From assembly GCF_055900595.2 (NCBI RefSeq), contig NZ_CM148325.1: a stretch of 64,000 nucleotides of DNA, one strand, 5' to 3'. The first letter of the stretch is position 1. Each line of letters begins with the position of its first letter. This document shows positions 2,395 through 54,530 of this stretch, one piece after another. The notes below the pieces were generated by a model. The model was not told where the DNA came from. It ran no database searches and saw nothing but the letters and a program-made list of their open reading frames with translations. The position numbers and the translations under genes are program-made.

Positions 2395-2431
2395 CTTGAC
2401 CTTCCCCTTGCTGGAAGGTTTAACCTTTAAC
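2395..2431 (+). promoter_or_regulatory. copA promoter with CueR (MerR-family) operator dyad ccttcc-N7-ggaagg between -35 and -10
   Basis: Sequence cttgaccttccccttgctggaaggtttaacc recognised as the copA/CueR box; AAGGAG RBS at 2454-2459. Confidence 0.85.
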
Positions 2432-2465
2432 ACAGTCAGTCAACACTGTCTTAAAGGAGTACGTT

Positions 2466-4970
2466 ATGTCACAAACTATCGACCTGACCCTGGACGGCCT
2501 GTCCTGCGGTCACTGCGTTAAACGCGTGAAAGAAAGTCTCGAACAGCGCCCGGATGTTGAGCAGGCGGATGTGTCTATCACTGAAGCGCACGTTACCGGT
2601 ACTGCCAGTGCAGAACAGCTGATCGAAACCATCAAACAAGCGGGTTATGACGCATCTGTAAGCCACCCAAAGGCTAAACCGCTGGCGGAGTCATCAATCC
2701 CGTCGGAAGCACTGACAGCGGTTTCTGAGGCGCTTCCGGCAGCAAACGCCGATGACGATGACAGTCAGCAGTTGCTGCTGAGCGGCATGAGCTGCGCCAG
2801 CTGTGTTACCCGCGTACAAAATGCGCTGCAAAGCGTACCGGGCGTCACTCAGGCACGGGTAAACCTGGCGGAGCGTACTGCGCTGGTGATGGGCAGTGCC
2901 TCCCCACAAGATTTAGTGCAGGCAGTGGAAAAAGCGGGCTACGGCGCGGAAGCGATTGAAGATGACGCTAAACGCCGCGAGCGCCAGCAGGAAACCGCCG
3001 TCGCTACCATGAAGCGCTTCCGCTGGCAGGCAATTGTCGCTCTGGCGGTAGGTATCCCGGTGATGGTCTGGGGGATGATCGGCGATAACATGATGGTCAC
3101 CGCCGACAACCGCAGTCTGTGGTTAGTTATCGGCCTGATAACGCTGGCGGTAATGGTTTTCGCCGGCGGGCATTTTTACCGTAGCGCATGGAAAAGCCTG
3201 CTGAACGGTGCGGCGACAATGGATACGCTGGTGGCGCTGGGTACTGGCGTGGCGTGGCTCTATTCAATGAGCGTCAACCTGTGGCCGCAGTGGTTCCCGA
3301 TGGAAGCGCGACATCTTTATTACGAAGCCAGTGCGATGATTATCGGTCTGATTAATCTCGGTCATATGCTGGAAGCGCGCGCACGTCAGCGTTCTTCAAA
3401 GGCGCTGGAGAAATTACTCGATTTAACCCCGCCGACGGCGCGCCTGGTCACTGACGAAGGTGAAAAAAGCGTGCCGCTGGCAGATGTTCAGCCTGGTATG
3501 TTACTACGCCTGACGACCGGCGATCGCGTACCGGTAGATGGTGAAATTACCCAGGGCGAAGCGTGGCTGGATGAAGCAATGCTGACGGGCGAACCTATTC
3601 CGCAGCAAAAAGGCGAAGGCGATAGCGTTCATGCAGGTACCGTGGTGCAGGACGGTAGCGTGCTGTTTCGTGCCAGTGCGGTTGGCAGCCATACTACGCT
3701 GTCACGGATCATTCGTATGGTGCGCCAGGCCCAGAGCAGTAAACCGGAAATCGGCCAGTTGGCGGATAAAATCTCTGCCGTATTTGTGCCGGTAGTGGTG
3801 GTGATTGCGCTGGTCAGTGCGGCAATCTGGTACTTCTTTGGTCCGGCACCGCAAATTGTTTATACCCTGGTGATTGCCACTACGGTACTGATTATCGCCT
3901 GCCCGTGTGCGCTGGGGCTGGCAACGCCAATGTCGATTATTTCCGGCGTCGGGCGTGCGGCTGAATTTGGCGTGCTGGTGCGGGACGCCGACGCGCTGCA
4001 GCGCGCCAGTACGCTCGACACCGTAGTGTTCGATAAAACCGGGACGCTGACCGAAGGGAAGCCGCAGGTTGTCGCAGTAAAAACATTTGCTGATGTTGAT
4101 GAAGCGCAAGCATTGCGTCTGGCGGCGGCACTGGAACAAGGTTCCAGCCATCCGCTGGCACGGGCGATCCTCGATAAAGCAGGCGATATGCAGCTGCCGC
4201 AGGTCAACAGCTTCCGTACATTGCGTGGGCTGGGCGTGAGCGGTGAAGCAGAAGGTCATGCGTTATTGCTGGGTAATCAGGCGTTGTTAAATGACCAGCA
4301 AGTCGATACTAAAGCGATTGAAGCAGATATTTCAGCCCAGGCATCGCAAGGGGCAACGCCTGTGCTGCTGGCGGTTGACGGGAAAGCGGTGGCCTTGCTG
4401 GCGGTGCGCGATCCGTTGCGTAACGATAGTGTGGCGGCACTGCAACGTCTGCATAAAGCGGGATATCGTCTGGTGATGCTAACCGGGGATAACCCGACCA
4501 CCGCCAATGCGATCGCCAAAGAAGCAGGGATTGATGAGGTGATAGCCGGCGTGCTGCCAGACGGTAAAGCCGAAGCGATCAAACGTCTGCAAAGTGAAGG
4601 ACGTCAGGTGGCAATGGTGGGCGACGGCATTAACGACGCGCCAGCGCTGGCTCAGGCGGATGTCGGTATTGCTATGGGTGGCGGCAGCGATGTTGCCATT
4701 GAAACCGCGGCGATTACCCTGATGCGCCATAGCCTGATGGGTGTTGCGGATGCGCTCGCAATTTCCCGCGCAACGCTGCGCAACATGAAGCAGAACCTGC
4801 TCGGTGCGTTTATCTACAACAGCATTGGTATTCCGGTCGCCGCCGGTATTTTGTGGCCGTTCACGGGAACACTGCTTAACCCGGTGGTTGCCGGAGCGGC
4901 AATGGCGCTCTCGTCGATTACCGTAGTGAGTAACGCCAACCGGTTGCTGCGGTTTAAACCGAAGGAATAA
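2466..4970 (+). CDS. copA: Cu(I)-translocating P-type ATPase
   Basis: 834 aa; two N-terminal GxxCxxC metal-binding domains, CPC motif, DKTGT phosphorylation site. Confidence 0.97.
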
Positions 4971-5165
4971 GTATGTCATTGCGGATGCGCTGCTTTAGGG
5001 TGGCGCATCTGGCATCGACGCATGCCTGCCGGATGCGGCGATGTTTTGGCCTTACGCGACCTTTTTGCACGTTTTCCCCGGCGTGCCAAATATTTAATCC
5101 GTCCCAACTCCATTTGCGCCATCCCTCACCGCGCGCTAGCATGATATTTCACAAAGGGAGGTCGT

Positions 5166-5960
5166 ATGGATCTGTTGTACCGGGTAAAAACGCTTTGGGC
5201 CGCGCTGTGCGGTAATCATTACACCTGGCCTGCTATCGATATCTCTCTTCCCGACCATCGCCATTTTCATCTAATCGGCAGTATTCATATGGGTAGCCAC
5301 GATATGGCTCCCCTGCCCACCCGTTTGCTCAAAAAGCTCAAAAACGCCGATGCGCTGATCGTCGAGGCGGATGTTTCTACCAGCGATACGCCTTTTGCCA
5401 ATTTGCCTGCCTGCGAGGCGCTGGAAGAGCGCATTAGCGAGGAGCAACTCCAAAACCTGCAGCACATTAGCCAGGAGATGGGCATTTCTCCGTCGCTCTT
5501 TTCTACCCAACCGCTGTGGCAAATCGCGATGGTTCTTCAGGCAACGCAAGCGCAAAAACTGGGGCTGCGGGCAGAATATGGTATCGATTACCAGCTATTG
5601 CAGGTGGCGAAGCAACAACATAAACCCGTGATTGAACTGGAAGGGGCAGAAAACCAGATTGCCATGTTGCTCCAGCTCCCTGACAAAGGACTGGCGCTGC
5701 TGGACGATACGCTGACCCACTGGCACACCAACGCTCGTTTGCTGCAACAAATGATGAGTTGGTGGCTGAATGCACCACCGCAAAATAATGAAATAACGCT
5801 GCCCAATACGTTCAGTCAGTCGCTGTACGATGTGTTGATGCATCAGCGAAATCTCGCCTGGCGGGACAAATTACGCGCTATGCCGCCGGGGCGCTATGTG
5901 GTCGCGGTCGGTGCACTACACCTGTATGGAGAAGGGAATTTGCCACAAATGTTGCGCTAA
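5166..5960 (+). CDS. ybaP: TraB-family protein YbaP
   Basis: 264 aa, recognised as YbaP; GGAGG RBS. Confidence 0.9.
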   Translation: MDLLYRVKTLWAALCGNHYTWPAIDISLPDHRHFHLIGSIHMGSHDMAPLPTRLLKKLKNADALIVEADVSTSDTPFANLPACEALEERISEEQLQNLQHISQEMGISPSLFSTQPLWQIAMVLQATQAQKLGLRAEYGIDYQLLQVAKQQHKPVIELEGAENQIAMLLQLPDKGLALLDDTLTHWHTNARLLQQMMSWWLNAPPQNNEITLPNTFSQSLYDVLMHQRNLAWRDKLRAMPPGRYVVAVGALHLYGEGNLPQMLR

Positions 5961-6042
5961 AAAAATGGCCAATATCGCTATTGGCCCGTCAAAGAGGAAT
6001 TTCATTTTTTTATTATTATGCCGTCACTTTAAGCGACGGTGT
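5959..6042 (-). ncRNA. chiX: ChiX (SroB/MicM) Hfq-dependent small RNA
   Basis: Reverse complement matches remembered ChiX sequence ACACCGTCGCTTAAAGTGACGGC...GGCCAATAGCGATATTGGCCATTTTTTT; 3' end overlaps ybaP stop codon. Confidence 0.9.
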
Positions 6043-6163
6043 AACTCGATTGTCGCTCAATCTCACCATCCTGCCAATACTCTTAGGCAAGATGACTCTT
6101 TTTTTTGGACCGCCATCAGGCGTATGCTTGCTTCGTTTTTTTGTTTAAGGCAGGAAAATTACC

Positions 6164-6643
6164 ATGACACCCGCAGTTAAATTACTCGAAAAAAACAAGA
6201 TTTCGTTTCAAATCCATACCTACGAGCACGATCCAGCTGAAACCAATTTTGGCGATGAAGTCGTCAAAAAATTAGGTTTGAATCCGGATCAGGTCTACAA
6301 AACGCTGCTGGTCGCAGTGAACGGTGATATGAAACATCTGGCAGTGGCCGTTACGCCGGTCGCCGGTCAACTGGATCTTAAAAAAGTAGCAAAGGCGTTG
6401 GGTGCCAAGAAAGTTGAGATGGCCGATCCGATGGTCGCGCAGCGTTCGACGGGATATCTGGTTGGGGGGATTAGCCCACTGGGGCAGAAAAAACGCCTGC
6501 CGACGATTATCGACGCCCCCGCGCAAGAGTTTGCCACTATTTTTGTTTCTGGCGGCAAGCGCGGGCTGGACATCGAACTGGCGGCAAGCGACCTGGCGAA
6601 GATCCTCGATGCCAAATTTGCTGATATCGCTCGTCGCGATTAA
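6164..6643 (+). CDS. ybaK: Cys-tRNA(Pro)/Cys-tRNA(Cys) deacylase
   Basis: 159 aa, recognised. Confidence 0.93.
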
Positions 6644-6679
6644 GCATTGTGCCGGATGCGAACATCCGGCACTTTCGGA

Positions 6680-8332
6680 TTACTGCCAGCTCACCTCACC
6701 TTTCGGTTCATAGACACTCACATCCAGCGGCGAGTTTTTCTGGATATACGCTTTCAGCACTTCAGCATCAATAAAGCCGGTATTCACATAGCCCGGTTTG
6801 TTATCCAGACGCGGATAGCCATCACCGCCAGTGGCATTGAAGTTTAATGTCGCCATACGGTAAGTTTTCGCCGGATCGACCGGTTCGCCTTTGATTTTCA
6901 GGTCGTTCAGTTTGCCGTCTTTCGCCACAAAGCTAACGTTGGCAAATTGCGGATAGGCACCAGAATCAGGCTTCATTTGTGCGACGGCGGTCAGGTAATC
7001 AATCACCTCTTTACCGGTCATGTCGGCATACACCACCACATTGCCGAATGGCTGCACTTTCAGCACATTTTTATAGCTGATATCACCTGTTTCGATAGAA
7101 TCACGAATTCCGCCTCCGCTCATCACCGCAAAGTCGGCACCAGTGCGATCCATTTGTGCTGCCAGAATCAACCGCCCCATATTGGTCTGTACAAAACGCA
7201 CTTTGCTGCGGTCGCCTTCCAGACGACCATTGGTTTCGCCTATTTTCACTTCCAGCTGCGCTTTGCCTTTGTTCTGGAACGGTGATAACAGCGAAATCAT
7301 TTGCTGGTTTTCGGCGATTTCAGGGGTGTAAAGCACACGCTCGCTTTTCCCGTCTTCCCAGGTCACTTTCTTCTTCAGGTTTACCGGAATCAACTGGTAG
7401 TTGACCATTTTCATTTCGCCGTTGCGAAACTCAAAGTCGGCCCGACCAACGTACTTGCCCCACTCATGCGCTTGTACAATCCAGATGCCATTTTGTTGAT
7501 CCGGTTTGCATGGCGTACCAGGAACGTAATCGACCTGTTTTTTATTTTCTGCCGCCATACAGACTGGATCTTGCGAGTGACCTCCGACGATCATCGCCAG
7601 CGATCCGGCAGGCAGCGCGCGTGCCATCTCCACATCGCCCGCTGCATTAGAGCCGTGCTCACCATTGTCGTAATGCCCCATATGGGTTGCCGCGATAATA
7701 ATGTCTGGCTTTTCTGTCTGTTGCAGCTCCTGAATCACCAGCTTCGCTTTATCAGCGGGCTTACGAAATTCGATATCAGTGAAGTATTCCGGGTTACCAA
7801 TTTTGGCTGTGTCATCGGTTGTCAGCCCAATAACGGCAATTTTCAGATCCTGACGCTTAAACAGCGCCCATGGTTTAAACAGGCGCTCACCAGTGCTTTT
7901 TTGGTAGATATTGGCGGAAAGCAACGGGAACTTAGCCCACTTTTCCTGCTGGCGTAATACGGTGAGCGGGTTATCAAATTCATGATTACCGATCGCCATT
8001 GCATCATAGCCCACCAGATTCATACCTCGAAAATCAGGTTCGGCATCCTGTAAGTCGGACTCGGGCACGCCAGTATTAATGTCGCCACCGGAAAGTAGCA
8101 GCACGCTACCACCTTCAGCCGCAACCTCTTTGCGAATACCGTCCACCAGCGTTTTTTGCGCCGCCAGACCATATTCGCCATATTCATTACGCCAGAAATG
8201 ACCATGATGATCATTGGTATGCAGAACTGTAATTTTGTAGGTTTTATCCTGCTCATAAGCCAGAGCAGTTTCACTCGCCAGTGTAAATGTGGTTAACAGT
8301 GCTAACGCCACGCCCCGCTGCAATAATTTCAT
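6680..8332 (-). CDS. ushA: UDP-sugar hydrolase / 5'-nucleotidase (periplasmic)
   Basis: 550 aa with signal peptide, metallophosphatase motifs. Confidence 0.95.
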   Translation of the reverse strand: MKLLQRGVALALLTTFTLASETALAYEQDKTYKITVLHTNDHHGHFWRNEYGEYGLAAQKTLVDGIRKEVAAEGGSVLLLSGGDINTGVPESDLQDAEPDFRGMNLVGYDAMAIGNHEFDNPLTVLRQQEKWAKFPLLSANIYQKSTGERLFKPWALFKRQDLKIAVIGLTTDDTAKIGNPEYFTDIEFRKPADKAKLVIQELQQTEKPDIIIAATHMGHYDNGEHGSNAAGDVEMARALPAGSLAMIVGGHSQDPVCMAAENKKQVDYVPGTPCKPDQQNGIWIVQAHEWGKYVGRADFEFRNGEMKMVNYQLIPVNLKKKVTWEDGKSERVLYTPEIAENQQMISLLSPFQNKGKAQLEVKIGETNGRLEGDRSKVRFVQTNMGRLILAAQMDRTGADFAVMSGGGIRDSIETGDISYKNVLKVQPFGNVVVYADMTGKEVIDYLTAVAQMKPDSGAYPQFANVSFVAKDGKLNDLKIKGEPVDPAKTYRMATLNFNATGGDGYPRLDNKPGYVNTGFIDAEVLKAYIQKNSPLDVSVYEPKGEVSWQ

Positions 8333-8549
8333 ACTTCTCTCCCTGATCAGATTTCAACGTGTTGAAAAATAGTATGACGCGACATCATAGACAAGTCTGC
8401 GTCCGGTGAAGATAAATCTGCATCCAGATTAGAAATTCTGTATTCAGCGTTGAGACTTCCTTCAGGCGGCGCATACAGGTATGTTAGTCGGGTAATAATC
8501 ACAAATAAGATCATTCTTTACATCGCAACCCTGAAAAAGTGACTTTCCT

Positions 8550-9770
8550 ATGGCAATGAGTGAACAAACCCAGCCAGTGGCTGGCGCTGCTGCGTCAACG
8601 ACCAAGGCCCGAACATCGTTTGGTATTTTAGGTGCTATCAGCCTCTCACATCTGCTGAACGACATGATCCAATCGCTGATTCTGGCGATTTATCCCCTGC
8701 TTCAGTCAGAATTTTCTCTGACATTTATGCAAATTGGCATGATAACCCTCACCTTCCAGCTCGCCTCTTCACTATTGCAACCGGTGGTCGGCTACTGGAC
8801 GGATAAATATCCGATGCCGTGGTCGTTGCCGATTGGCATGTGCTTTACCTTAAGCGGTCTGGTGCTGCTGGCGCTGGCGGGCAGTTTTGGCGCAGTTCTG
8901 CTGGCGGCGGCGTTGGTCGGCACTGGTTCGTCGGTCTTTCACCCGGAATCCTCACGCGTGGCCCGAATGGCGTCTGGTGGCCGTCATGGTCTGGCGCAAT
9001 CTATCTTCCAGGTCGGCGGAAACTTTGGCAGTTCACTTGGTCCCTTGCTGGCGGCGGTAATTATCGCGCCTTATGGCAAAGGTAACGTGGCGTGGTTTGT
9101 ACTGGCTGCTCTGTTAGCTATCGTGGTGCTGGCGCAAATCAGCCGTTGGTACTCTGCACAGCACCGAATGAATAAGGGCAAACCCAAAGCAACGATTATC
9201 AATCCACTGCCGCGCAACAAAGTGGTACTGGCGGTCAGCATTCTGTTAATCCTGATTTTCTCGAAATATTTCTATATGGCGAGCATCAGCAGCTATTACA
9301 CCTTTTATCTGATGCAAAAATTCGGATTATCTATCCAGAATGCCCAGCTTCATCTATTTGCATTCCTGTTTGCCGTTGCGGCAGGTACGGTGATCGGCGG
9401 GCCTGTAGGGGATAAAATTGGACGGAAATATGTGATTTGGGGCTCTATCCTCGGCGTTGCGCCGTTTACGCTGATTTTACCCTACGCCAGCCTGCACTGG
9501 ACGGGGGTTTTAACGGTGATTATTGGATTTATCCTCGCTTCGGCGTTCTCTGCCATTCTGGTCTACGCTCAGGAGCTACTTCCAGGACGTATCGGTATGG
9601 TTTCTGGACTCTTTTTCGGTTTTGCTTTCGGCATGGGGGGTCTGGGAGCGGCAGTTCTGGGGCTTATCGCCGACCACACCAGCATCGAGTTAGTCTATAA
9701 AATCTGTGCTTTCCTGCCACTATTGGGGATGTTGACCATATTCCTACCTGATAACCGGCATAAAGACTGA
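8550..9770 (+). CDS. fsr: Fosmidomycin resistance MFS transporter
   Basis: 406 aa, multi-pass membrane protein, recognised. Confidence 0.92.
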   Translation: MAMSEQTQPVAGAAASTTKARTSFGILGAISLSHLLNDMIQSLILAIYPLLQSEFSLTFMQIGMITLTFQLASSLLQPVVGYWTDKYPMPWSLPIGMCFTLSGLVLLALAGSFGAVLLAAALVGTGSSVFHPESSRVARMASGGRHGLAQSIFQVGGNFGSSLGPLLAAVIIAPYGKGNVAWFVLAALLAIVVLAQISRWYSAQHRMNKGKPKATIINPLPRNKVVLAVSILLILIFSKYFYMASISSYYTFYLMQKFGLSIQNAQLHLFAFLFAVAAGTVIGGPVGDKIGRKYVIWGSILGVAPFTLILPYASLHWTGVLTVIIGFILASAFSAILVYAQELLPGRIGMVSGLFFGFAFGMGGLGAAVLGLIADHTSIELVYKICAFLPLLGMLTIFLPDNRHKD

Positions 9771-10007
9771 TTTCATTGCAGCCAAAGGCAAACTTTGGCT
9801 GCATCGTTTTACAGTCGCCATAAGCCTTTCCTCTGTTAAACCGCCTTCTGTTTTCCGATCCGTGCTTTTTTTGCCGCTAATTCCATTTTTCTGCAAAATT
9901 CAACAATTATTCATAAACATCATCAATGAAATTGTCATAAACTATTACCTGTAATTTTGGTTTTCCCGGCCAAAAATGGACAATAACCACCAGGAAAAGG
10001 AGACGGA

Positions 10008-11684
10008 ATGCATCACGCCACCCCGCTTATCACCACCATTGTTGGCGGCCTTGTGCTCGCCTTTATCCTCGGCATGCTGGCCAATAAACTACGCATTTCT
10101 CCTCTGGTGGGATACCTGTTAGCAGGTGTGCTGGCGGGACCATTCACTCCTGGCTTTGTTGCCGATACCAAGCTCGCGCCGGAACTGGCGGAGCTGGGCG
10201 TTATTCTGCTGATGTTCGGCGTCGGTTTGCACTTTTCGCTGAAGGATTTGATGGCGGTAAAGGCCATCGCCATTCCCGGCGCGATCGCCCAGATAGCCGT
10301 GGCGACGCTGCTGGGTATGGCGCTCTCCGCCGTGCTGGGCTGGTCGTTAATGACCGGTATCGTGTTCGGTTTATGTCTTTCCACCGCCAGTACCGTGGTG
10401 TTACTGCGCGCACTTGAAGAACGGCAATTAATAGACAGCCAGCGTGGGCAAATCGCCATCGGTTGGTTGATTGTGGAAGACCTGGTCATGGTTCTGACGC
10501 TGGTATTGCTGCCCGCAGTAGCAGGAATGATGGAACAGGGCGATGTGGGCTTTGCCACTCTTGCAGTCGATATGGGGATCACCATCGGCAAGGTGATCGC
10601 ATTTATCGCCATTATGATGCTGGTAGGTCGCCGTCTGGTGCCGTGGATTATGGCACGCAGCGCAGCAACCGGTTCCCGCGAGCTGTTTACCCTGTCGGTG
10701 CTGGCGCTGGCGTTAGGGATTGCCTTTGGTGCGGTGGAGCTGTTTGATGTCTCCTTTGCACTCGGTGCGTTCTTTGCCGGGATGGTACTGAACGAGTCTG
10801 AACTGAGTCACCGTGCTGCCCACGATACGCTGCCATTACGCGACGCGTTTGCGGTGCTGTTTTTTGTCTCCGTCGGAATGCTGTTTGATCCGTTAATTCT
10901 GATTCAGCAACCACTGGCGGTGCTAGCGACGCTGGCGATTATTCTGTTTGGTAAGTCATTAGCCGCGTTTTTCCTGGTGCGACTGTTTGGTCACTCTCAA
11001 CGTACGGCATTAACTATCGCCGCCAGCCTGGCGCAAATTGGTGAGTTCGCTTTTATCCTGGCGGGGCTGGGGATGGCGCTGGATCTGTTGCCGCAGGCCG
11101 GACAAAACCTGGTGCTGGCAGGGGCAATCCTGTCGATTATGCTTAACCCGGTGCTGTTCGCGCTGCTGGAGAAATATCTGGCGAAGACCGAAACGCTGGA
11201 AGAGCAGACGCTGGAAGAAGCTATCGAAGAGGAGAAGCAGATTCCGGTGGATATCTGCAACCATGCGCTGCTGGTAGGTTATGGTCGTGTGGGCAGCCTG
11301 CTGGGGGAGAAGTTGCTCGCATCTGATATTCCTTTAGTGGTGATTGAGACGTCACGTACTCGCGTCGATGAACTGCGCGAGCGCGGGGTCCGGGCGGTAT
11401 TAGGCAACGCGGCGAATGAAGAAATTATGCAACTAGCGCATCTGGAATGCGCAAAATGGCTGATCCTGACGATTCCCAATGGTTACGAAGCAGGCGAGAT
11501 TGTGGCGTCTGCTCGCGCGAAAAACCCGGATATTGAGATTATCGCCCGCGCCCATTATGACGACGAGGTAGCATATATTACCGAGCGCGGGGCGAATCAG
11601 GTGGTAATGGGCGAGCGTGAAATCGCCCGTACTATGCTGGAACTGCTGGAAACGCCACCGGCGGGTGAAGTGGTGACGGGGTAA
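10008..11684 (+). CDS. ybaL: CPA2-family putative K+/H+ antiporter with C-terminal RCK/KTN domain
   Basis: 558 aa, recognised. Confidence 0.92.
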   Translation: MHHATPLITTIVGGLVLAFILGMLANKLRISPLVGYLLAGVLAGPFTPGFVADTKLAPELAELGVILLMFGVGLHFSLKDLMAVKAIAIPGAIAQIAVATLLGMALSAVLGWSLMTGIVFGLCLSTASTVVLLRALEERQLIDSQRGQIAIGWLIVEDLVMVLTLVLLPAVAGMMEQGDVGFATLAVDMGITIGKVIAFIAIMMLVGRRLVPWIMARSAATGSRELFTLSVLALALGIAFGAVELFDVSFALGAFFAGMVLNESELSHRAAHDTLPLRDAFAVLFFVSVGMLFDPLILIQQPLAVLATLAIILFGKSLAAFFLVRLFGHSQRTALTIAASLAQIGEFAFILAGLGMALDLLPQAGQNLVLAGAILSIMLNPVLFALLEKYLAKTETLEEQTLEEAIEEEKQIPVDICNHALLVGYGRVGSLLGEKLLASDIPLVVIETSRTRVDELRERGVRAVLGNAANEEIMQLAHLECAKWLILTIPNGYEAGEIVASARAKNPDIEIIARAHYDDEVAYITERGANQVVMGEREIARTMLELLETPPAGEVVTG

Positions 11685-11689
11685 GACAT

Positions 11690-11885
11690 TGATTCCATTG
11701 CCGGATGCGATGCTGGCGCATCTTATCCGGCCTACAGGTGCCACCTTCCAAAGGTCGGATAAGGCGTTTATGTCGCATCCGACTGTCATTGCCGGATGCG
11801 ATGTTGACACATCTTATCCAGCCTACAGGTGCCATCTTTCGTAGGTCGGATAAGGCGTTTATGCCGCATCCGACTGTCATCAGTC
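11690..11885. repeat. REP/BIME cluster (two tandem about 95-bp palindromic units)
   Basis: gccggatgcg...cgcatccggc palindromes typical of E. coli REP elements between convergent ybaL and gsk. Confidence 0.8.
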
Positions 11886-11892
11886 CGATAAC

Positions 11893-13197
11893 TTAACGAT
11901 CCCAGTAAGACTCTTCCAGACTGTCTTCACGCTCCGGTAAGCCGCGCGTTAAACGAGGTGAATGCTGGTTCAGTACCTGATAGCTCACACGGTTAGCATA
12001 TTTACACACCTGCGCTAATGACGAATACGTTAACCAGGTGAATTTATGTTTGCTGGAGTTTGGTACGTTGCTACGGTGGTAGCTGTTGGCGGTAATGTCA
12101 TGCAGCAATGCTGCCAGTGCGCCATCCCCGGCACCGTTGGTGTTCATGATCTTTTCCGGCCCGCCCATGTACGGCGCAATGTGAGAATAGACGCGCAGCG
12201 GGTTCTGGCAATCTTTATGGCGCATGGCGCGGCTAAACTCATACTGGTTAAATTCCGCTATAGCGCCCGGCAGCAGCGGATGCTGGGTTTTACGTTTCGC
12301 TTCGTCTTCAGTAAAGCCCGCCATATACAAGCCGATTGGCCCGGCGGTGCACAGCACCAGATCAACCCAGTCCAGCGCCTTGTCAGATGCCAACAACGGA
12401 TCGCTTTCTCCGGTCAACGCTTCGGCCTCATCTTCGTTCATCGCAAGGATAGAGACGTGATCTTTGAGGAATTGCTGCCACCACTGCGGATTCTCGGCAA
12501 TGACAAACTTGGTGCCCAGCGTCAGCACCACCGGTACGTTATATTTCTTCGCGTACTCAATGGCTTTCATGGTTGCTTCCGGCATGGGTTCACCCGGCTT
12601 ACAACGCACCAGATAAGAAGTGAGAACCAGTGCCGAGGCTCCGGCAATCACATCTTCCGGAATACTTTCAGCCCGCAGCTGGTTCATGTGGCCAGGGCTG
12701 ATAGCAAAGGTACGTTCCCCGGACTCGCCAATCAGGGTAAAGCAGCGACCAATCGGGCCGTCCACGCCTTGCAGATAGTTAAGATCGGTACGGCTGGAGG
12801 TGTTACACAGGTAACGATAGGCATAGCTGCCAATTTCAATATTGCTGCACATGACGCCCAGCAGCACCGAACGGTCGTCCGCGAGCACCGAGTAGTTGTG
12901 CATGGTGTTACCAATGGTGCCACCCGCAAACTGGTGAGTAATCAGGTTTTTCTGTTTCAGCTCCTGATAAAGTGCTTCGGCAACATCATCCTCAATCACC
13001 AGTGAATGCCCGGCGCTTAATCCATAACGCTCAATGAACTCATCATCCACTTTCGCTTCAATATCGACCAGCGTTTGATCGATACCCACTACCCAGGCAG
13101 CGCTGGTTTCGTTTTCTGGCTGGAATTGCTGAAGCAGCGGATCGCGTGCGTTTACGGGAAAATAATGTTTGGATTTACGTTTGCCGGGAAATTTCAT
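11893..13197 (-). CDS. gsk: Inosine-guanosine kinase
   Basis: 434 aa, recognised. Confidence 0.95.
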   Translation of the reverse strand: MKFPGKRKSKHYFPVNARDPLLQQFQPENETSAAWVVGIDQTLVDIEAKVDDEFIERYGLSAGHSLVIEDDVAEALYQELKQKNLITHQFAGGTIGNTMHNYSVLADDRSVLLGVMCSNIEIGSYAYRYLCNTSSRTDLNYLQGVDGPIGRCFTLIGESGERTFAISPGHMNQLRAESIPEDVIAGASALVLTSYLVRCKPGEPMPEATMKAIEYAKKYNVPVVLTLGTKFVIAENPQWWQQFLKDHVSILAMNEDEAEALTGESDPLLASDKALDWVDLVLCTAGPIGLYMAGFTEDEAKRKTQHPLLPGAIAEFNQYEFSRAMRHKDCQNPLRVYSHIAPYMGGPEKIMNTNGAGDGALAALLHDITANSYHRSNVPNSSKHKFTWLTYSSLAQVCKYANRVSYQVLNQHSPRLTRGLPEREDSLEESYWDR

Positions 13198-13348
13198 GGT
13201 TGTTTTTACGGGTGGTTAACTGAGCGGCGAATGTTAACACAATCAGACGGGAGCGCGCGAGACGCAGCCAGTTTCAATATCAGCAGGCGGGATCGCATTT
13301 TCATGGCAGTGGTTCCTTACAATGACGTAATTTGAAAGGAGTTTTTGC

Positions 13349-14308
13349 ATGAAGCCGGAAAACAAATTACCCGTTCTGGACCTTATTTCTGCTGAAATGA
13401 AGACCGTTGTGAATACTCTTCAGCCGGATTTACCGCCCTGGCCCGCAACGGGAACGATTGCTGAGCAACGACAGTATTACACACTTGAGCGCCGATTCTG
13501 GAATGCGGGCGCTCCAGAAATGGCAACCAGCGCTTACATGGTTCCCACACCTTATGGTCAGGTCGAGACTCGCCTCTACTCACCCAAAAGTCACAGCCCG
13601 GCGACACTATTTTATCTGCATGGTGGTGGTTTTATTCTCGGCAATCTTGATACCCACGATCGGATTATGCGACTGCTGGCAAATTACACCCAATGTACAG
13701 TGATTGGTATTGCTTACACTCTTTCGCCGGAAGCACGTTTTCCGCAGGCAATAGAGGAAATTGTGGCTGCCTGTTGCCACTTCCACCAGCAGGCAGAGGA
13801 TTATCAAATCAATATGTCACGCATTGGTTTTGCTGGTGATTCTGCAGGCGCAATGCTGGCGCTCGCCGGTGCGTTGTGGTTACGTGATAAACAGATAGAT
13901 TGCGGTGAAGTTGCGGGCGTTTTGCTGTGGTATGGGCTTTACGGATTACGGGATTCCGTGACTCGTCGTCTGTTGGGCGGTGTTTGGGATGGCTTAACGC
14001 AAGAGGATTTACAGATGTATGAAGAGGCGTATTTAAGCAACGACGCTGACCGCGAGTCGCCGTATTACTGCCTGTTTAATAATGATCTCACTCGTGAGGT
14101 TCCGCCCTGTTTTATTGCCGGAGCGGAGTTCGATCCGCTGCTGGATGACAGCCGTCTGCTTTACCAGACGTTAGCGGCGCATCAGCAGCCCTGTGAGTTC
14201 AAACTCTACCCAGGCACGCTGCACGCCTTTTTGCATTATTCACGGATGATGAAAGCCGCCGACGAGGCTCTTCGCGACGGCGCTCAGTTCTTTACCGCTC
14301 AGCTTTAG
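13349..14308 (+). CDS. aes: Acetyl esterase
   Basis: 319 aa, HGGG motif, GDSAG serine motif. Confidence 0.95.
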
Positions 14309-15267
14309 CGATACGCGGCAACAAGATTAGCCATCATTTCGATATGTTCCGGTGTGGCATTAAGCGCCGGAATATATTCGTATTTTTTCCCGCCCGCACC
14401 GAGGAAGACCTCACGGTTTTGCTCGGCAATCTCTTCCAGCGTCTCCAGACAATCTGCAGCAAAGCCCGGGCACATCACCTGAATATGACCTACGCCTTTT
14501 TCTCCGAGCATTTTCAGCGTTTCATCGGTATAAGGCATTAGCCAGGGTTCCCGACCAAAACGCGACTGAAAGGTCATCATCACTTTTTCCGGAGCCATTC
14601 CCAGTGCGGAAGCCAGTTCACGTGTAGTTGTGCGACAACGTTGCGGGTAATCATCGCCTTCATCGGCATAACGCTGGGGAATGCCATGATAAGAGAGCAG
14701 CAGCAGATCCGGTTCGCCATGTTTGGCAAAAGAAGCACGTACGCTGTTCGCCAGTGCATTAATGTAATCGTGGTTATCGGCGTAATCACGAATAAACGAT
14801 ATCCCCGGAATGCTACGTTTGCGCGCCAGAATGCGTGCCAGTTCATCCCATACCGCACCGACCGTTGAACAGGAGTATTGCGGATAAAGCGGAAGCACCA
14901 CAATATGATCTACATGCTCTGCCAGGAGTTCATCTACGGCGCTTTCCAGTGATGGCGAGCCGTAGCTCATTCCCAGCGCTACGGGCGTCTCCGGTAAACG
15001 TTGTGCCAGCGCCTGCTGTTGCTGGCGGCTGTAAACCATCAGTGGCGAGCCGCCCTCCATCCAGACAGAGGCATACAACTTCGCCACACGCGGCGAGCGC
15101 AGCGGCAAAATCACGCCGTGCAGCAACGGCCACCACAACAGCCGTGAGGTATCAACCACGCGTCTGTCGCTTAAAAATTGTTTCAGGTAGCGTTTTACCG
15201 CTTCAGGAGTGGGGGCATCGGGTGTACCCAGGTTTGCCAGCAGAATACCGGTTTTAGTTTGACGCAT
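14305..15267 (-). CDS. hemH: Ferrochelatase
   Basis: 320 aa; 4-bp convergent overlap with aes. Confidence 0.95.
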
Positions 15268-15398
15268 TACCGCCTCTTATCGATTCAACTTGTTGATAAT
15301 TGTAGCGGAAAAGTGAAGAAGAAGAACTAATTGCTGTGAGAGGTTTTGCCTGAGGAGGATGAGCAGACCTGCCCGAAAGCAGATCTGCTGCGGCTTAA

Positions 15399-19194: not shown

Positions 19195-21126
19195 TCAAAT
19201 GGGGCGGATACTTTCTTCATCCAGCTCCGCATCGAAGAATCGACGCAGGGTCTGAATATTATTATCCGCAATAATGGACTCGCGCGCCTGCGCAAGTTTT
19301 TCTTCGTATATCGCCTGACGCCATTCCAGCGGCGTGCGCACCGCGGGATTATCATCTTCAACGATAGTCAGTTCAACCGTTGAACCTTTTAACGTGCTCA
19401 ACGCTTCAGCCAGTTTTTGCTGTGCACCGCGGTTGTTTAAATGCCGCTGAGAGGAGCGCAAATGCAGACATACTGCGTTGTCGCTCTCCTCTTTCCAAGC
19501 ATTTAACGCCACCTGTTCGACCAGTTTTGGTAGCGAAAGTTGGCTCACCTGTGCCGCCCAAGGATCGCGGTCAATGGCTTCTGCCGCCAGCTTTGCCGCC
19601 AGTTCCGGCGTTTTTTCATGTTCCAGCGCTTTTTTCAGCGCCTTCGGCGTGGCGACCACCTCTTTTTGCTGCATCACTGGAGTGGTAGCCTTCCAGCGAT
19701 ACGCTTCTTTTTTGGCTGGTGCTTTTTCCAGCGCCGATGGCCCCGGACGCGCCTGAACGCGATCGGTGACCGAAGCCAGTCTTTCCAGCGCAGCGTTATT
19801 CACCGGCCGCGCGCGGGTAGCGGCTGCCGGTTCACTCTTTTTTGCTTTGGTTGCTCCCTGTGCGCGCTGCAGTTGTTGGCGCGCTGCCAGCACCTGGCTG
19901 GTGGTTTCTGAGAGCGGTACAGTCGGTGCCTGCTGCGGTGCTGATTGCGGTTGCGGCGGCACCTGGGTTGGCGTCATTACTGCCGTTGGCGCGACGGGCG
20001 CAAAAGACTGGCGTGGCACTTCTGGCTCAGGCAGCGGCATACGCGGATGAAACGCCAGTGCGCGCAACAGTGTCATCTCAACGCCCATGCGGCGGTCCGG
20101 CGCATACGGTAATTCTTTGCGACCAATCAACAGCGTTTGATAGTAAAGCTGAATATCCGTCGGCGGTATGGTGCGCGCCAGTTCACGCATCCGCAGCTCG
20201 ATGGCGGCCATGTCGTTGCCCAGCGCAGCAGGGGAAAGTTGCACCATTGCAATGCGGTGCAACAGGCCGAGCATTTCTACCAGCAACGCTTCCCACTCAA
20301 TACCACGAGCGGCGGCTTCATTAATCAGCGACATTACACGCTCGCCGTTGGCTTCAACCATCGCTTCAACCAGCGACAGCGCCTGATCGTCGTCAAGCGT
20401 ACCCAGCATCGCACTGACCGCCTGGGTTGAAACCTGGCCGTCACCGCTGGCAATTGCCTGGTCGGTTAAACTTAGGGCATCTCGCAAGCTGCCTTCAGCG
20501 GCGCGCGCCAGCAGTTGCAGCGCCCGCGGCTCGTGAGCGATATGTTCTTCGTTGAGGATGTGCTCAAGCTGATGGCGAATTTGCTCGACATCCAGCGCCT
20601 TGAGATGAAATTGCAGGCAGCGTGACAAAATCGTCACCGGCAATTTCTGCGGATCGGTCGTCGCCAGCAGAAACTTGACGTGCTCCGGCGGTTCTTCAAG
20701 GGTTTTTAACAGTGCGTTAAAGCTGTGGCGCGACAGCATATGCACTTCGTCGATCAGATAAACTTTAAAACGACCACGCGCTGGCGCGTACTGGACGTTA
20801 TCCAGCAGGTCGCGGGTATCTTCGACTTTGGTGCGCGAGGCGGCGTCGATTTCAATCAGATCGACAAAGCGCCCCTGCTCAATTTCACGACAGTTATCGC
20901 ACACGCCGCACGGCGTCGCGGTAATGCCGGTTTCGCAGTTTAGCCCCTTCGCCAGCAGTCGGGCGATAGAGGTTTTTCCGACGCCACGGGTGCCGGAAAA
21001 AAGATAAGCATGATGAATACGCCCTAACGACAAGCCGTTCGCCAGTGCGGTCAGCACATGTTCCTGGCCGACGACGTCAGCAAAGGTTTGTGGGCGCCAT
21101 TTTCGGGCTAAGACCTGATAACTCAT
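19195..21126 (-). CDS. dnaX: DNA polymerase III tau subunit (gamma produced by programmed -1 frameshift)
   Basis: 643 aa, AAA+ Walker motifs; slippery heptamer A AAA AAG at 19837-19843 (minus strand). Confidence 0.97.
   Translation of the reverse strand: MSYQVLARKWRPQTFADVVGQEHVLTALANGLSLGRIHHAYLFSGTRGVGKTSIARLLAKGLNCETGITATPCGVCDNCREIEQGRFVDLIEIDAASRTKVEDTRDLLDNVQYAPARGRFKVYLIDEVHMLSRHSFNALLKTLEEPPEHVKFLLATTDPQKLPVTILSRCLQFHLKALDVEQIRHQLEHILNEEHIAHEPRALQLLARAAEGSLRDALSLTDQAIASGDGQVSTQAVSAMLGTLDDDQALSLVEAMVEANGERVMSLINEAAARGIEWEALLVEMLGLLHRIAMVQLSPAALGNDMAAIELRMRELARTIPPTDIQLYYQTLLIGRKELPYAPDRRMGVEMTLLRALAFHPRMPLPEPEVPRQSFAPVAPTAVMTPTQVPPQPQSAPQQAPTVPLSETTSQVLAARQQLQRAQGATKAKKSEPAAATRARPVNNAALERLASVTDRVQARPGPSALEKAPAKKEAYRWKATTPVMQQKEVVATPKALKKALEHEKTPELAAKLAAEAIDRDPWAAQVSQLSLPKLVEQVALNAWKEESDNAVCLHLRSSQRHLNNRGAQQKLAEALSTLKGSTVELTIVEDDNPAVRTPLEWRQAIYEEKLAQARESIIADNNIQTLRRFFDAELDEESIRPI
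19837..19843 (-). other. dnaX: dnaX programmed -1 ribosomal frameshift slippery site (A AAA AAG)
   Basis: Plus-strand cttttttg; protein context ...ATKAKK SEPAAATRARP matches the known gamma C-terminus region. Confidence 0.85.
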
Positions 21127-23149: not shown

Positions 23150-23265
23150 AAACGCAAAACTGCCTGATGCGCTACGCTTATCAGGCCTACACCGCTCCTG
23201 CAATATATTGAATTCTTGCGGTTTCGTAGGCCGGATAAGGCGGTCACGCCGCATCCGGCATGAAC
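23150..23265. repeat. REP-like palindromic elements
   Basis: gccggataaggcg...cgccgcatccggc motifs downstream of ybaM and mscK. Confidence 0.7.
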
Positions 23266-36657: not shown

Positions 36658-36771
36658 GGGTGGGGGCCCTGCCAGCTACATCCCGGCACACGCGTCATCT
36701 GCCTTGGCTGCTTCCTTCCGGACCTGACCTGGTAAACAGAGTAGCGTTGCGGGAGAACCAACAGAGCCCCC
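36658..36771 (-). ncRNA. ffs: 4.5S RNA (signal recognition particle RNA)
   Basis: 114 nt; reverse complement matches GGGGGCTCTGTTGGTTCTCCCGCAACGC...GGGCCCCCACCC. Confidence 0.95.
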
Positions 36772-54343: not shown

Positions 54344-54450
54344 AGAGCTCTCTCTTAGTTTAATTTCCGCCAGGTAATCAGATGACACGACTGTGCTTCA
54401 CGCCATCTATTAACATGTACGTCAGTATATGGGGATGTTTCCCCCACATT
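54344..54450 (-). promoter_or_regulatory. lon heat-shock promoter region, uninterrupted
   Basis: Recognised leader ...CCCCATATACTGACGTACATGTTAATAGATGGCGTGAAGCACAGTCGTGTCATCTGATTACCTGGCGGAAATTAAACTAAGAGAGAGCTCT ATG. Confidence 0.6.
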
Positions 54451-54530
54451 CAACGCCGAGAATAGAGGAAAAATTAAAGGGGAGATAAAATCCCCCCTTT
54501 TTGGTTAACTAATTGTATGGGAATGGTTAA

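Follow-up and report, generated by a model that had tools for sequence, protein, structure and literature searches.

A two-unit tandem BIME array between the convergent genes ybaL and gsk of Escherichia coli

Bacterial interspersed mosaic elements (BIMEs), their tandem amplification and their polymorphism among strains have been described since the 1990s. Their definitions, which include a conserved GTAG, and the variation of copy number within a single locus are well documented, and the copies of a tandem array at one site are generally well conserved (PMC3333891). The REP-associated transposase TnpA(REP) requires the GTAG together with a mismatch in the stem (PMC3333891). The canonical BIME-2 is REP325 of E. 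coli K-12, located between yjdM and yjdN, and direct comparison with it is the basis of the unit typing given below. REP325 has a period of 100 bp, which consists of GTAG and a y REP, a 13-nt linker, a z2 iREP with CTAC, and a 17-nt linker. It has been reported that REP325 acts as a partly Rho-dependent attenuator and as an mRNA stabiliser, that REPs occur in about 30% of the convergent gene pairs of E. coli, such pairs being more highly expressed, and that the effects of REPs on expression and half-life are variable and context-dependent (bioRxiv 10.64898/2026.03.23.713779). BIME-2 elements are also enriched in gyrase cleavage sites, with a preference for y REPs, as is known for some BIME-2 elements of K-12 (PMC6379681).

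The locus described here separates the convergent genes ybaL and gsk. It lies in a window of 64,000 nucleotides, which is the whole stretch of DNA that was analysed (NCBI RefSeq assembly GCF_055900595.2, contig NZ_CM148325.1). The spacer holds a BIME composed of four REP palindromic units in alternating orientation. With high confidence, it is explained jointly by a BIME cluster, a probable local tandem duplication and, by analogy, a presumed REP-like hairpin and gyrase role. The locus behaves as expected and is already known in kind.

Layout of the array and membership in the REP family

The spacer extends over 208 bp (11685-11892) and is mostly filled by two units of 91 bp. The assignments of ybaL and gsk agree with the RefSeq annotation of matching genomes, and the protein family scores of both genes bear out an earlier sequence-only reading that had placed the repeat between them. 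The features are as follows.

10008-11684, plus strand: ybaL, putative K+ efflux transporter (NCBIfam NF007950, 1102 bits; RefSeq annotation on identical DNA)
11696-11786, unstranded: tandem unit 1, 91 bp, made of CATT, iREP, linker, REP and TGT (repeat search; Tandem Repeats Finder, period 91)
11700-11735, plus strand: palindromic unit 1 in iREP orientation, ending in CTAC, GCCGGATGCGATGCTGGCGCATCTTATCCGGCCTAC (hairpin of -21.5 kcal/mol)
11736-11749, unstranded: tail-to-tail linker of unit 1, AGGTGCCACCTTCC (sequence)
11750-11783, plus strand: y-type REP of unit 1, with AAAG for GTAG and then the stem-loop GTCGGATAAGGCGTTTATGTCGCATCCGAC (hairpin of -15.0 kcal/mol)
11753-11823, plus strand: y-linker-z2 architecture of Rfam naRNA4 (RF02564), across the unit junction (59.3 bits, E = 2e-10)
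11784-11790, unstranded: head-to-head linker TGTCATT, 7 nt, which includes the unit junction (sequence)
11787-11877, unstranded: tandem unit 2, 91 bp, 82/91 identical to unit 1 (repeat search; Tandem Repeats Finder; unit comparison)
11791-11826, plus strand: palindromic unit 2 in iREP orientation, GCCGGATGCGATGTTGACACATCTTATCCAGCCTAC (hairpin of -12.8 kcal/mol; pair counts)
11827-11840, unstranded: tail-to-tail linker of unit 2, AGGTGCCATCTTTC (sequence)
11841-11874, plus strand: y-type REP of unit 2, with intact GTAG and an AA/GC stem mismatch, GTAGGTCGGATAAGGCGTTTATGCCGCATCCGAC (hairpin of -17.7 kcal/mol; 31/34 identical to the y unit of REP325)
11893-13197, minus strand: gsk, inosine/guanosine kinase (NCBIfam NF011655, 915 bits; RefSeq annotation)

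A repeat search and Tandem Repeats Finder agree on a 91-nt unit present twice, head to tail, at 11696-11786 and 11787-11877. The latter program extends the array to 11880, with a score of 307, 90% matches, 0 indels and a period of 91. The two units are identical at 82 of 91 positions (90.1%), and the nine differences comprise one compensatory stem pair, one change that breaks a pair and four changes in the linker and GTAG region. The earlier claim of two copies about 90 percent identical therefore stands, the unit length being 91 bp instead of the proposed 95 bp or so, and the interval given then (11690-11885) encloses the array at 11696-11877.

Each unit is read as CATT, a 36-nt imperfect palindrome ending in CTAC, a linker of 14-16 nt, GTAG (AAAG in unit 1), a 30-nt imperfect palindrome and TGT. 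Within a unit the two imperfect palindromes face opposite ways; they occupy 11700-11735 and 11754-11783 in the first unit and 11791-11826 and 11845-11874 in the second. Each whole unit can in addition fold back on itself, with energies of -44.9 kcal/mol for unit 1 and -35.4 kcal/mol for unit 2. The units are thus palindromic, as had been proposed. A tandem palindromic array of this kind exceeds chance expectation by motif count as well as by folding. The window contains 5 matches to the REP tail motif CTTATCCGGCCTAC, at most two mismatches being allowed, where 0.26 would be expected, and none of 100 shuffles reaches that count. Folding of the 236-nt spacer RNA yields -103.1 kcal/mol on the plus strand and -99.7 kcal/mol on the minus strand (z = -6.7 and -6.6, respectively), and none of 200 shuffles folded as well.

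The palindromes have the properties by which REPs are recognised. All four are imperfect palindromes of 30-40 nt that form a stem-loop (-21.5, -15.0, -12.8 and -17.7 kcal/mol). The GTAG located 5′ of the stem foot, or the CTAC that follows an iREP, is intact in three of the four (CTAC at 11732-35 and 11823-26, GTAG at 11841-44); the fourth unit carries AAAG at 11750-53, which is GAAG in other carriers. Unpaired bases occur within the stems, A8.C23 and A9.G22 in the y units and C9.U24 along with a G.U wobble in the z2-like units, and the GTAG and stem mismatch that TnpA(REP) requires in cis are kept together in three of the four units. The array is extragenic, lying between two stop codons, and dispersed, as a 261-nt query finds a median of five places per E. 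coli genome. Checked against REP units, all four palindromes match, and the array is a standard member of the REP family.

The comparison with REP325 specifies the subtype. Alternating REP and iREP units in tandem (iREP-REP-iREP-REP), with a copy number that varies among strains as half-, one- and two-unit alleles, correspond to a BIME-2. The y component is clear: the GTAG-bearing REP at 11841-11874 is identical to the REP325 y unit at 31 of 34 positions, and two of the three differences compensate each other, replacing C-G by U-A at the stem foot. The inverted unit at 11700-11735 is identical to the REP325 z2 unit at 31 of 36 positions; four of the five differences are two compensatory pairs, U-A to G-C at 4/29 and C-G to U-A at 12/21. 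This partner unit has z2-type length and interior, yet it carries G-C, not U-A, at stem positions 4/29, which is one of the positions where the y and z2 units of REP325 differ. Its counterpart at 11791-11826 shows one compensatory pair (C-G to U-A, stem 14/19) and one broken pair (C3.A30). In small, hand-picked stem alignments, 95.6% of the cells are paired for the z2-like units and 100% for the y REPs, which were aligned with the REP325 y unit and other y REPs; 3 and 2 pairs, respectively, change on both sides, and pairing falls to 15-47% in controls with slid partners. The linkers of 14-16 nt and 7 nt differ from the 17 nt and 13 nt of REP325 in sequence as well as in length. Because its linkers are shorter and different in sequence, and because the pair that separates y from z2 is switched relative to REP325, the ybaL-gsk array is best called a BIME-2-like, atypical BIME. 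BIME-1 (RIP/RIB) was considered and rejected for this array, which has no 29-nt z1 unit and no long linker. In K-12 (NC_000913.3) no REP is annotated between gsk and ybaL; the same is true of the REP325 region taken as a control, so this absence is uninformative.

The REP325 comparison, the compensatory stem changes and the score of the Rfam naRNA4 model agree with the earlier description of a tandem duplicated BIME/REP that is ordinary for E. coli. The naRNA4 model fits the plus strand at 11753-11823 with a linker 6 nt shorter and with 59.3 bits, against a gathering score of 59.5; a scan of the whole window at that threshold (59.5 bits) returned no RF02564 match. A match of this quality could also indicate a gene for a trans-acting naRNA-like small RNA, which would condense the chromosome with HU, and naRNA4 has been reported to bind HU and to condense DNA (PMC4550694). 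Such a gene is very unlikely here. Its score remains under the gathering threshold, the model describes the generic y-linker-z2 architecture of BIME-2 and reaches 45.2 bits on the opposite strand too, and a promoter scan of the spacer found no promoter-like site inside the BIME. The activity of naRNA4 is itself disputed, as another study found no effect of REP325/naRNA4 on nucleoid compaction (bioRxiv 10.64898/2026.03.23.713779). Elsewhere in the window, expected E. coli RNAs score above the Rfam gathering threshold.

5959-6042, minus strand: sroB/ChiX
19798-19862, minus strand: dnaX frameshift element
36667-36763, minus strand: SRP RNA (ffs)
54415-54510, plus strand: sraA

Alleles of the spacer and origin of the second copy

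The ybaL-gsk spacer is polymorphic, and at least four forms occur among 5,426 complete E. coli genomes.

Allele A (K-12 type): z2 REP, linker and y iREP, with a GCCGGATG remnant by the ybaL stop; 129-132 bp; about 4,830 genomes (about 89%)
Allele B: single inverted unit and a degenerate stub; 83 bp; roughly 575 genomes (10-11%)
Allele C: one 91-bp unit; 116 bp; one genome, AR_0077
Allele D (that of the window): two units; 208 bp; 15 of 5,426 genomes (0.3%)

Of the matches that spanned 80% or more of the query, none had three or more units. The strain-variable copy number expected by the sequence-only reading is therefore found in this population, in which the arrangement of the units varies too.

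Allele D is rare and real. Over 261 bp, both flanks included, it is 100% identical in nine independent complete genomes, which come from dog, cattle and human and from several projects, and six other genomes have the same structure with 2-3 substitutions over these 261 bp. Its carriers do not form one clone: 8 of them show 100% identity to the window across 22.6 kb, and the other 7 show 98.1-98.6%. Assembly errors classically arise at tandem repeats, and the second 91-bp copy might on this account be spurious or the array might mark a misjoin, as the earlier suggestion of an assembly breakpoint implied. That account is contradicted by the recurrence of the structure in the nine identical and six similar genomes, by the nine differing sites in 91, which allow even short reads to place the copies unambiguously, and by the intact state of both flanking genes; an assembly artefact is almost certainly not the explanation.

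The allelic variation also bears on whether the repeats contain a small protein-coding gene. Open reading frames do exist, at 11689-11844 (plus strand, 51 aa), 11705-11896 (plus strand, 63 aa) and 11632-11880 (minus strand, 82 aa), and one RefSeq genome has a "hypothetical protein" annotation that covers a paralogous BIME between caiF and caiE. However, the frames consist of the repeated palindromes, unit gain or loss and allele replacement abolish them in more than 99% of strains, and no gene is annotated in the spacer of any RefSeq genome examined. A coding function is thus extremely improbable. The annotation over the caiF-caiE BIME is probably a spurious call, and annotators should avoid calling mechanical open reading frames through such repeats.

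The second copy probably arose when a one-unit BIME resembling that of AR_0077 was duplicated locally in tandem. The trinucleotide CAT, at 11696-98, 11787-89 and 11878-80, bounds the duplicated 91-bp segment, and in the one-unit allele of AR_0077 it stands on either side of the unit. These boundaries, shared by one- and two-unit alleles, fit slippage or unequal exchange at microhomology: replication slippage, or unequal exchange between the CAT microhomologies, would generate the second 91-bp copy. Hairpin formation or TnpA(REP) may have helped, and a part of this transposase in amplification is plausible by analogy (PMC3333891). Local duplication is favoured over a second insertion because no other E. 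coli locus exceeds 87% identity to the array, whereas the two units are 90% alike. Searches for a donor or an outgroup by two exact-pattern scans, one directed at the right junction found in the one- and two-unit alleles and the other at the left junction common to the window-type alleles, gave 0 matches in 100,044 species-representative genomes.

To judge from the sequences, the duplication is not recent, since the units differ at 9 sites and the AR_0077 unit is about equally distant from both (8, 9 and 10 differences among the three units). There are signs of wear as well: the REP at 11750-11783 is without GTAG, and the stem at 11791-11826 is weaker than its counterpart (-12.8 vs -21.5 kcal/mol). 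The loss of GTAG and the weakened stem suggest decay rather than strong selection.

The array had also been proposed as a likely recombination breakpoint. One junction agrees with this proposal. The carrier MFDS1022581 combines the BIME and gsk end of the window (0 mismatches in 220 nt) with a ybaL 3′ end of the common type, which shows 19 mismatches to the window over 11480-11630, spaced in multiples of three as are third-codon-position changes. From this mosaic, a recombination junction is located in the interval 11631-11695, immediately left of the array. As a single case, the junction does not establish the BIME as the cause of the exchange, and divergence is patchy across 13 kb. The last 785 nt of ybaL (10900-11684) are at least 99% identical in 10 of 5,422 genomes, 95-99% identical in 6 and 88.8-92.2% identical in the rest, so that this divergent ybaL 3′ haplotype looks like an old or imported recombinant tract. 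The divergent ybaL 3′ end, with 89-92% identity to about 5,400 genomes, can conveniently serve to mark the lineage when combined with the rare two-unit allele. Over 2,400-15,300 the identity to K-12 is uneven, with a mean of about 95% and with dips in aes (13501-13800, 85%) and copA (4201-4500, 89%), and it amounts to about 97.5% from about 15,400 on, which suggests that 2,400-15,300 is a mosaic of recombined segments. The BIME was rejected as a unique hot spot of divergence, the copA and aes peaks being equal or stronger.

Other polymorphisms were observed towards the left end of the window. Positions 1-2394, directly upstream of copA, form the terminal part of a P2-like prophage and include genes for the late control D protein and an ogr/Delta zinc-finger protein as well as small hypothetical genes. 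This prophage end is missing from 8 genomes that are 100% identical over 2395-25000, and it is found in the chicken isolates CS5L and CM2. Positions 5041-5100 have no alignment in K-12, and the window lacks about 660 bp that K-12 has between the aligned blocks on either side, ybaQ (b0483) included; the collinear strain CS5L likewise has no ybaQ annotated at the corresponding position. From the sequence, the copA/ybaP interval looks like a site of indel polymorphism.

Possible roles of the hairpins

By analogy with described REPs, the likely role of the array would be to provide RNA hairpins in both convergent 3′ untranslated regions, with possible gyrase binding. Stable hairpins at the 3′ end of either convergent mRNA would block 3′-to-5′ exonucleases and thereby stabilise the upstream message. 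Read-through into the opposing gene would likewise be attenuated, in part by way of Rho, whose contribution is proposed because the spacer is without an intrinsic terminator. Each of the two convergent transcripts would meet two strong hairpin pairs. In the DNA itself, the y REPs are candidate sites of gyrase binding and cleavage.

Stable G+C-rich hairpins on both strands between convergent genes might instead constitute a bidirectional intrinsic (Rho-independent) terminator, and nearly 40% of convergent-gene REPs lie within previously predicted bidirectional terminators (bioRxiv 10.64898/2026.03.23.713779). At this locus, a hairpin followed by a T-run is absent from 11685-11892 on either strand, the sole matches of the scan falling inside gsk, and downstream of the stems each strand has mixed sequence and no U-tract. 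An intrinsic terminator is accordingly improbable.

The distance between the hairpins and the stop codons suggests a different effect, on translation. The ybaL stop codon TAA occupies 11682-11684 and the first REP stem begins 15 nt further on; the gsk stop codon occupies 11893-11895 and the nearest REP stem on the gsk transcript is 18 nt away. REPs less than 16 nt past a stop are reported to stall terminating ribosomes (Liang et al. 2015, as quoted in PMC12306157). The first REP hairpin could in this way down-regulate ybaL through ribosome stalling, mRNA cleavage and tmRNA tagging, and the distance from the ybaL stop to the hairpin is indeed 15 nt in the window, 15 nt in allele B and 14 nt in allele C, against about 34 nt in K-12. 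Yet 15 nt is at the very edge of the reported range and the 18 nt on the gsk side are outside it, the effect has been tested on few genes, and the duplication would add nothing, since the first hairpin alone counts. Translational down-regulation of ybaL is a possible but doubtful role.

It has further been considered that replacement of the spacer allele is a natural regulatory switch and not neutral turnover, the two-unit form strengthening the barrier between the ybaL and gsk transcripts. In the window-type alleles, which account for about 11% of E. coli, the first REP hairpin lies 14-15 nt past the ybaL stop. The persistence of the hairpins through about 10% divergence, with one compensatory stem change, would then reflect selection on them. 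We consider a regulatory switch unlikely. A role by analogy with described REPs, as hairpins at the two 3′ ends and candidate gyrase sites, is preferred for the array, and the spacer provides a compact natural allelic series (K-12 type, single REP, one unit and two units) that could test the influence of REP number and of stop distance.

Comparison with known systems

The array shares with BIME-1 (RIP/RIB), in which z1 and y units are joined by the long L linker, the presence of REPs in inverted orientation. The 29-nt z1, the conserved AT-rich linker of about 35 nt, which often contains an IHF site, and the single copy that characterise BIME-1 are absent from it. A BIME-1-like element was observed elsewhere in the window, at about 23161-23259 between rsmS (ybaM) and mscK; in it the z1 iREP GCCTGATGCGCTACGCTTATCAGGCCTAC is joined to a GTAG-bearing y REP by an AT-rich linker of 35 nt that may contain an IHF site.

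The K-12-type BIME of the same spacer occupies the same stop-to-stop site and also contains one z2 and one y unit. Its arrangement is opposite, with z2 as REP first and then y as iREP, head to head, and it contains no tandem repeat. A GCCGGATG remnant stands where the window has its first iREP, and about 34 nt separate the ybaL stop from the first intact hairpin, compared with 15 nt in the window.

REP325 resembles the array in its alternating REP and iREP units, short linkers and head-to-tail repeats, in its position in the 3′ region of genes and in its strain-variable copy number. The differences concern the period (91 bp in the array, 100 bp in REP325), the number of copies (two vs six) and the z2-like unit, which carries G-C where z2 has U-A (GCCGGATG vs GCCTGATG). 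Moreover, the copies of the window are just 90% alike, whereas the units of REP325 are near-identical, and one GTAG has degenerated to AAAG, unlike in the BIME-2 type.

The BIMEs between caiF and caiE and between loiP and speB of E. coli, both also located between convergent genes, carry the identical 36-nt iREP GCCGGATGCGATGCTGGCGCATCTTATCCGGCCTAC, in each case in combination with the same GTCGGATAAGGCGTT..CCGAC y-type REP. The loiP/speB copy of the 36-nt inverted unit is found in K-12. Linker sequences and flanks are different at these loci, and their overall identity to the window array is 82-87%. The caiF-caiE polymorphism was seen in other E. coli, at 1170-1377 of locus L011 and at 1172-1289 of locus L012. 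This BIME is the closest paralogue of the ybaL-gsk array and, as at ybaL-gsk, strains differ in whether it has one unit of about 90 bp or two.
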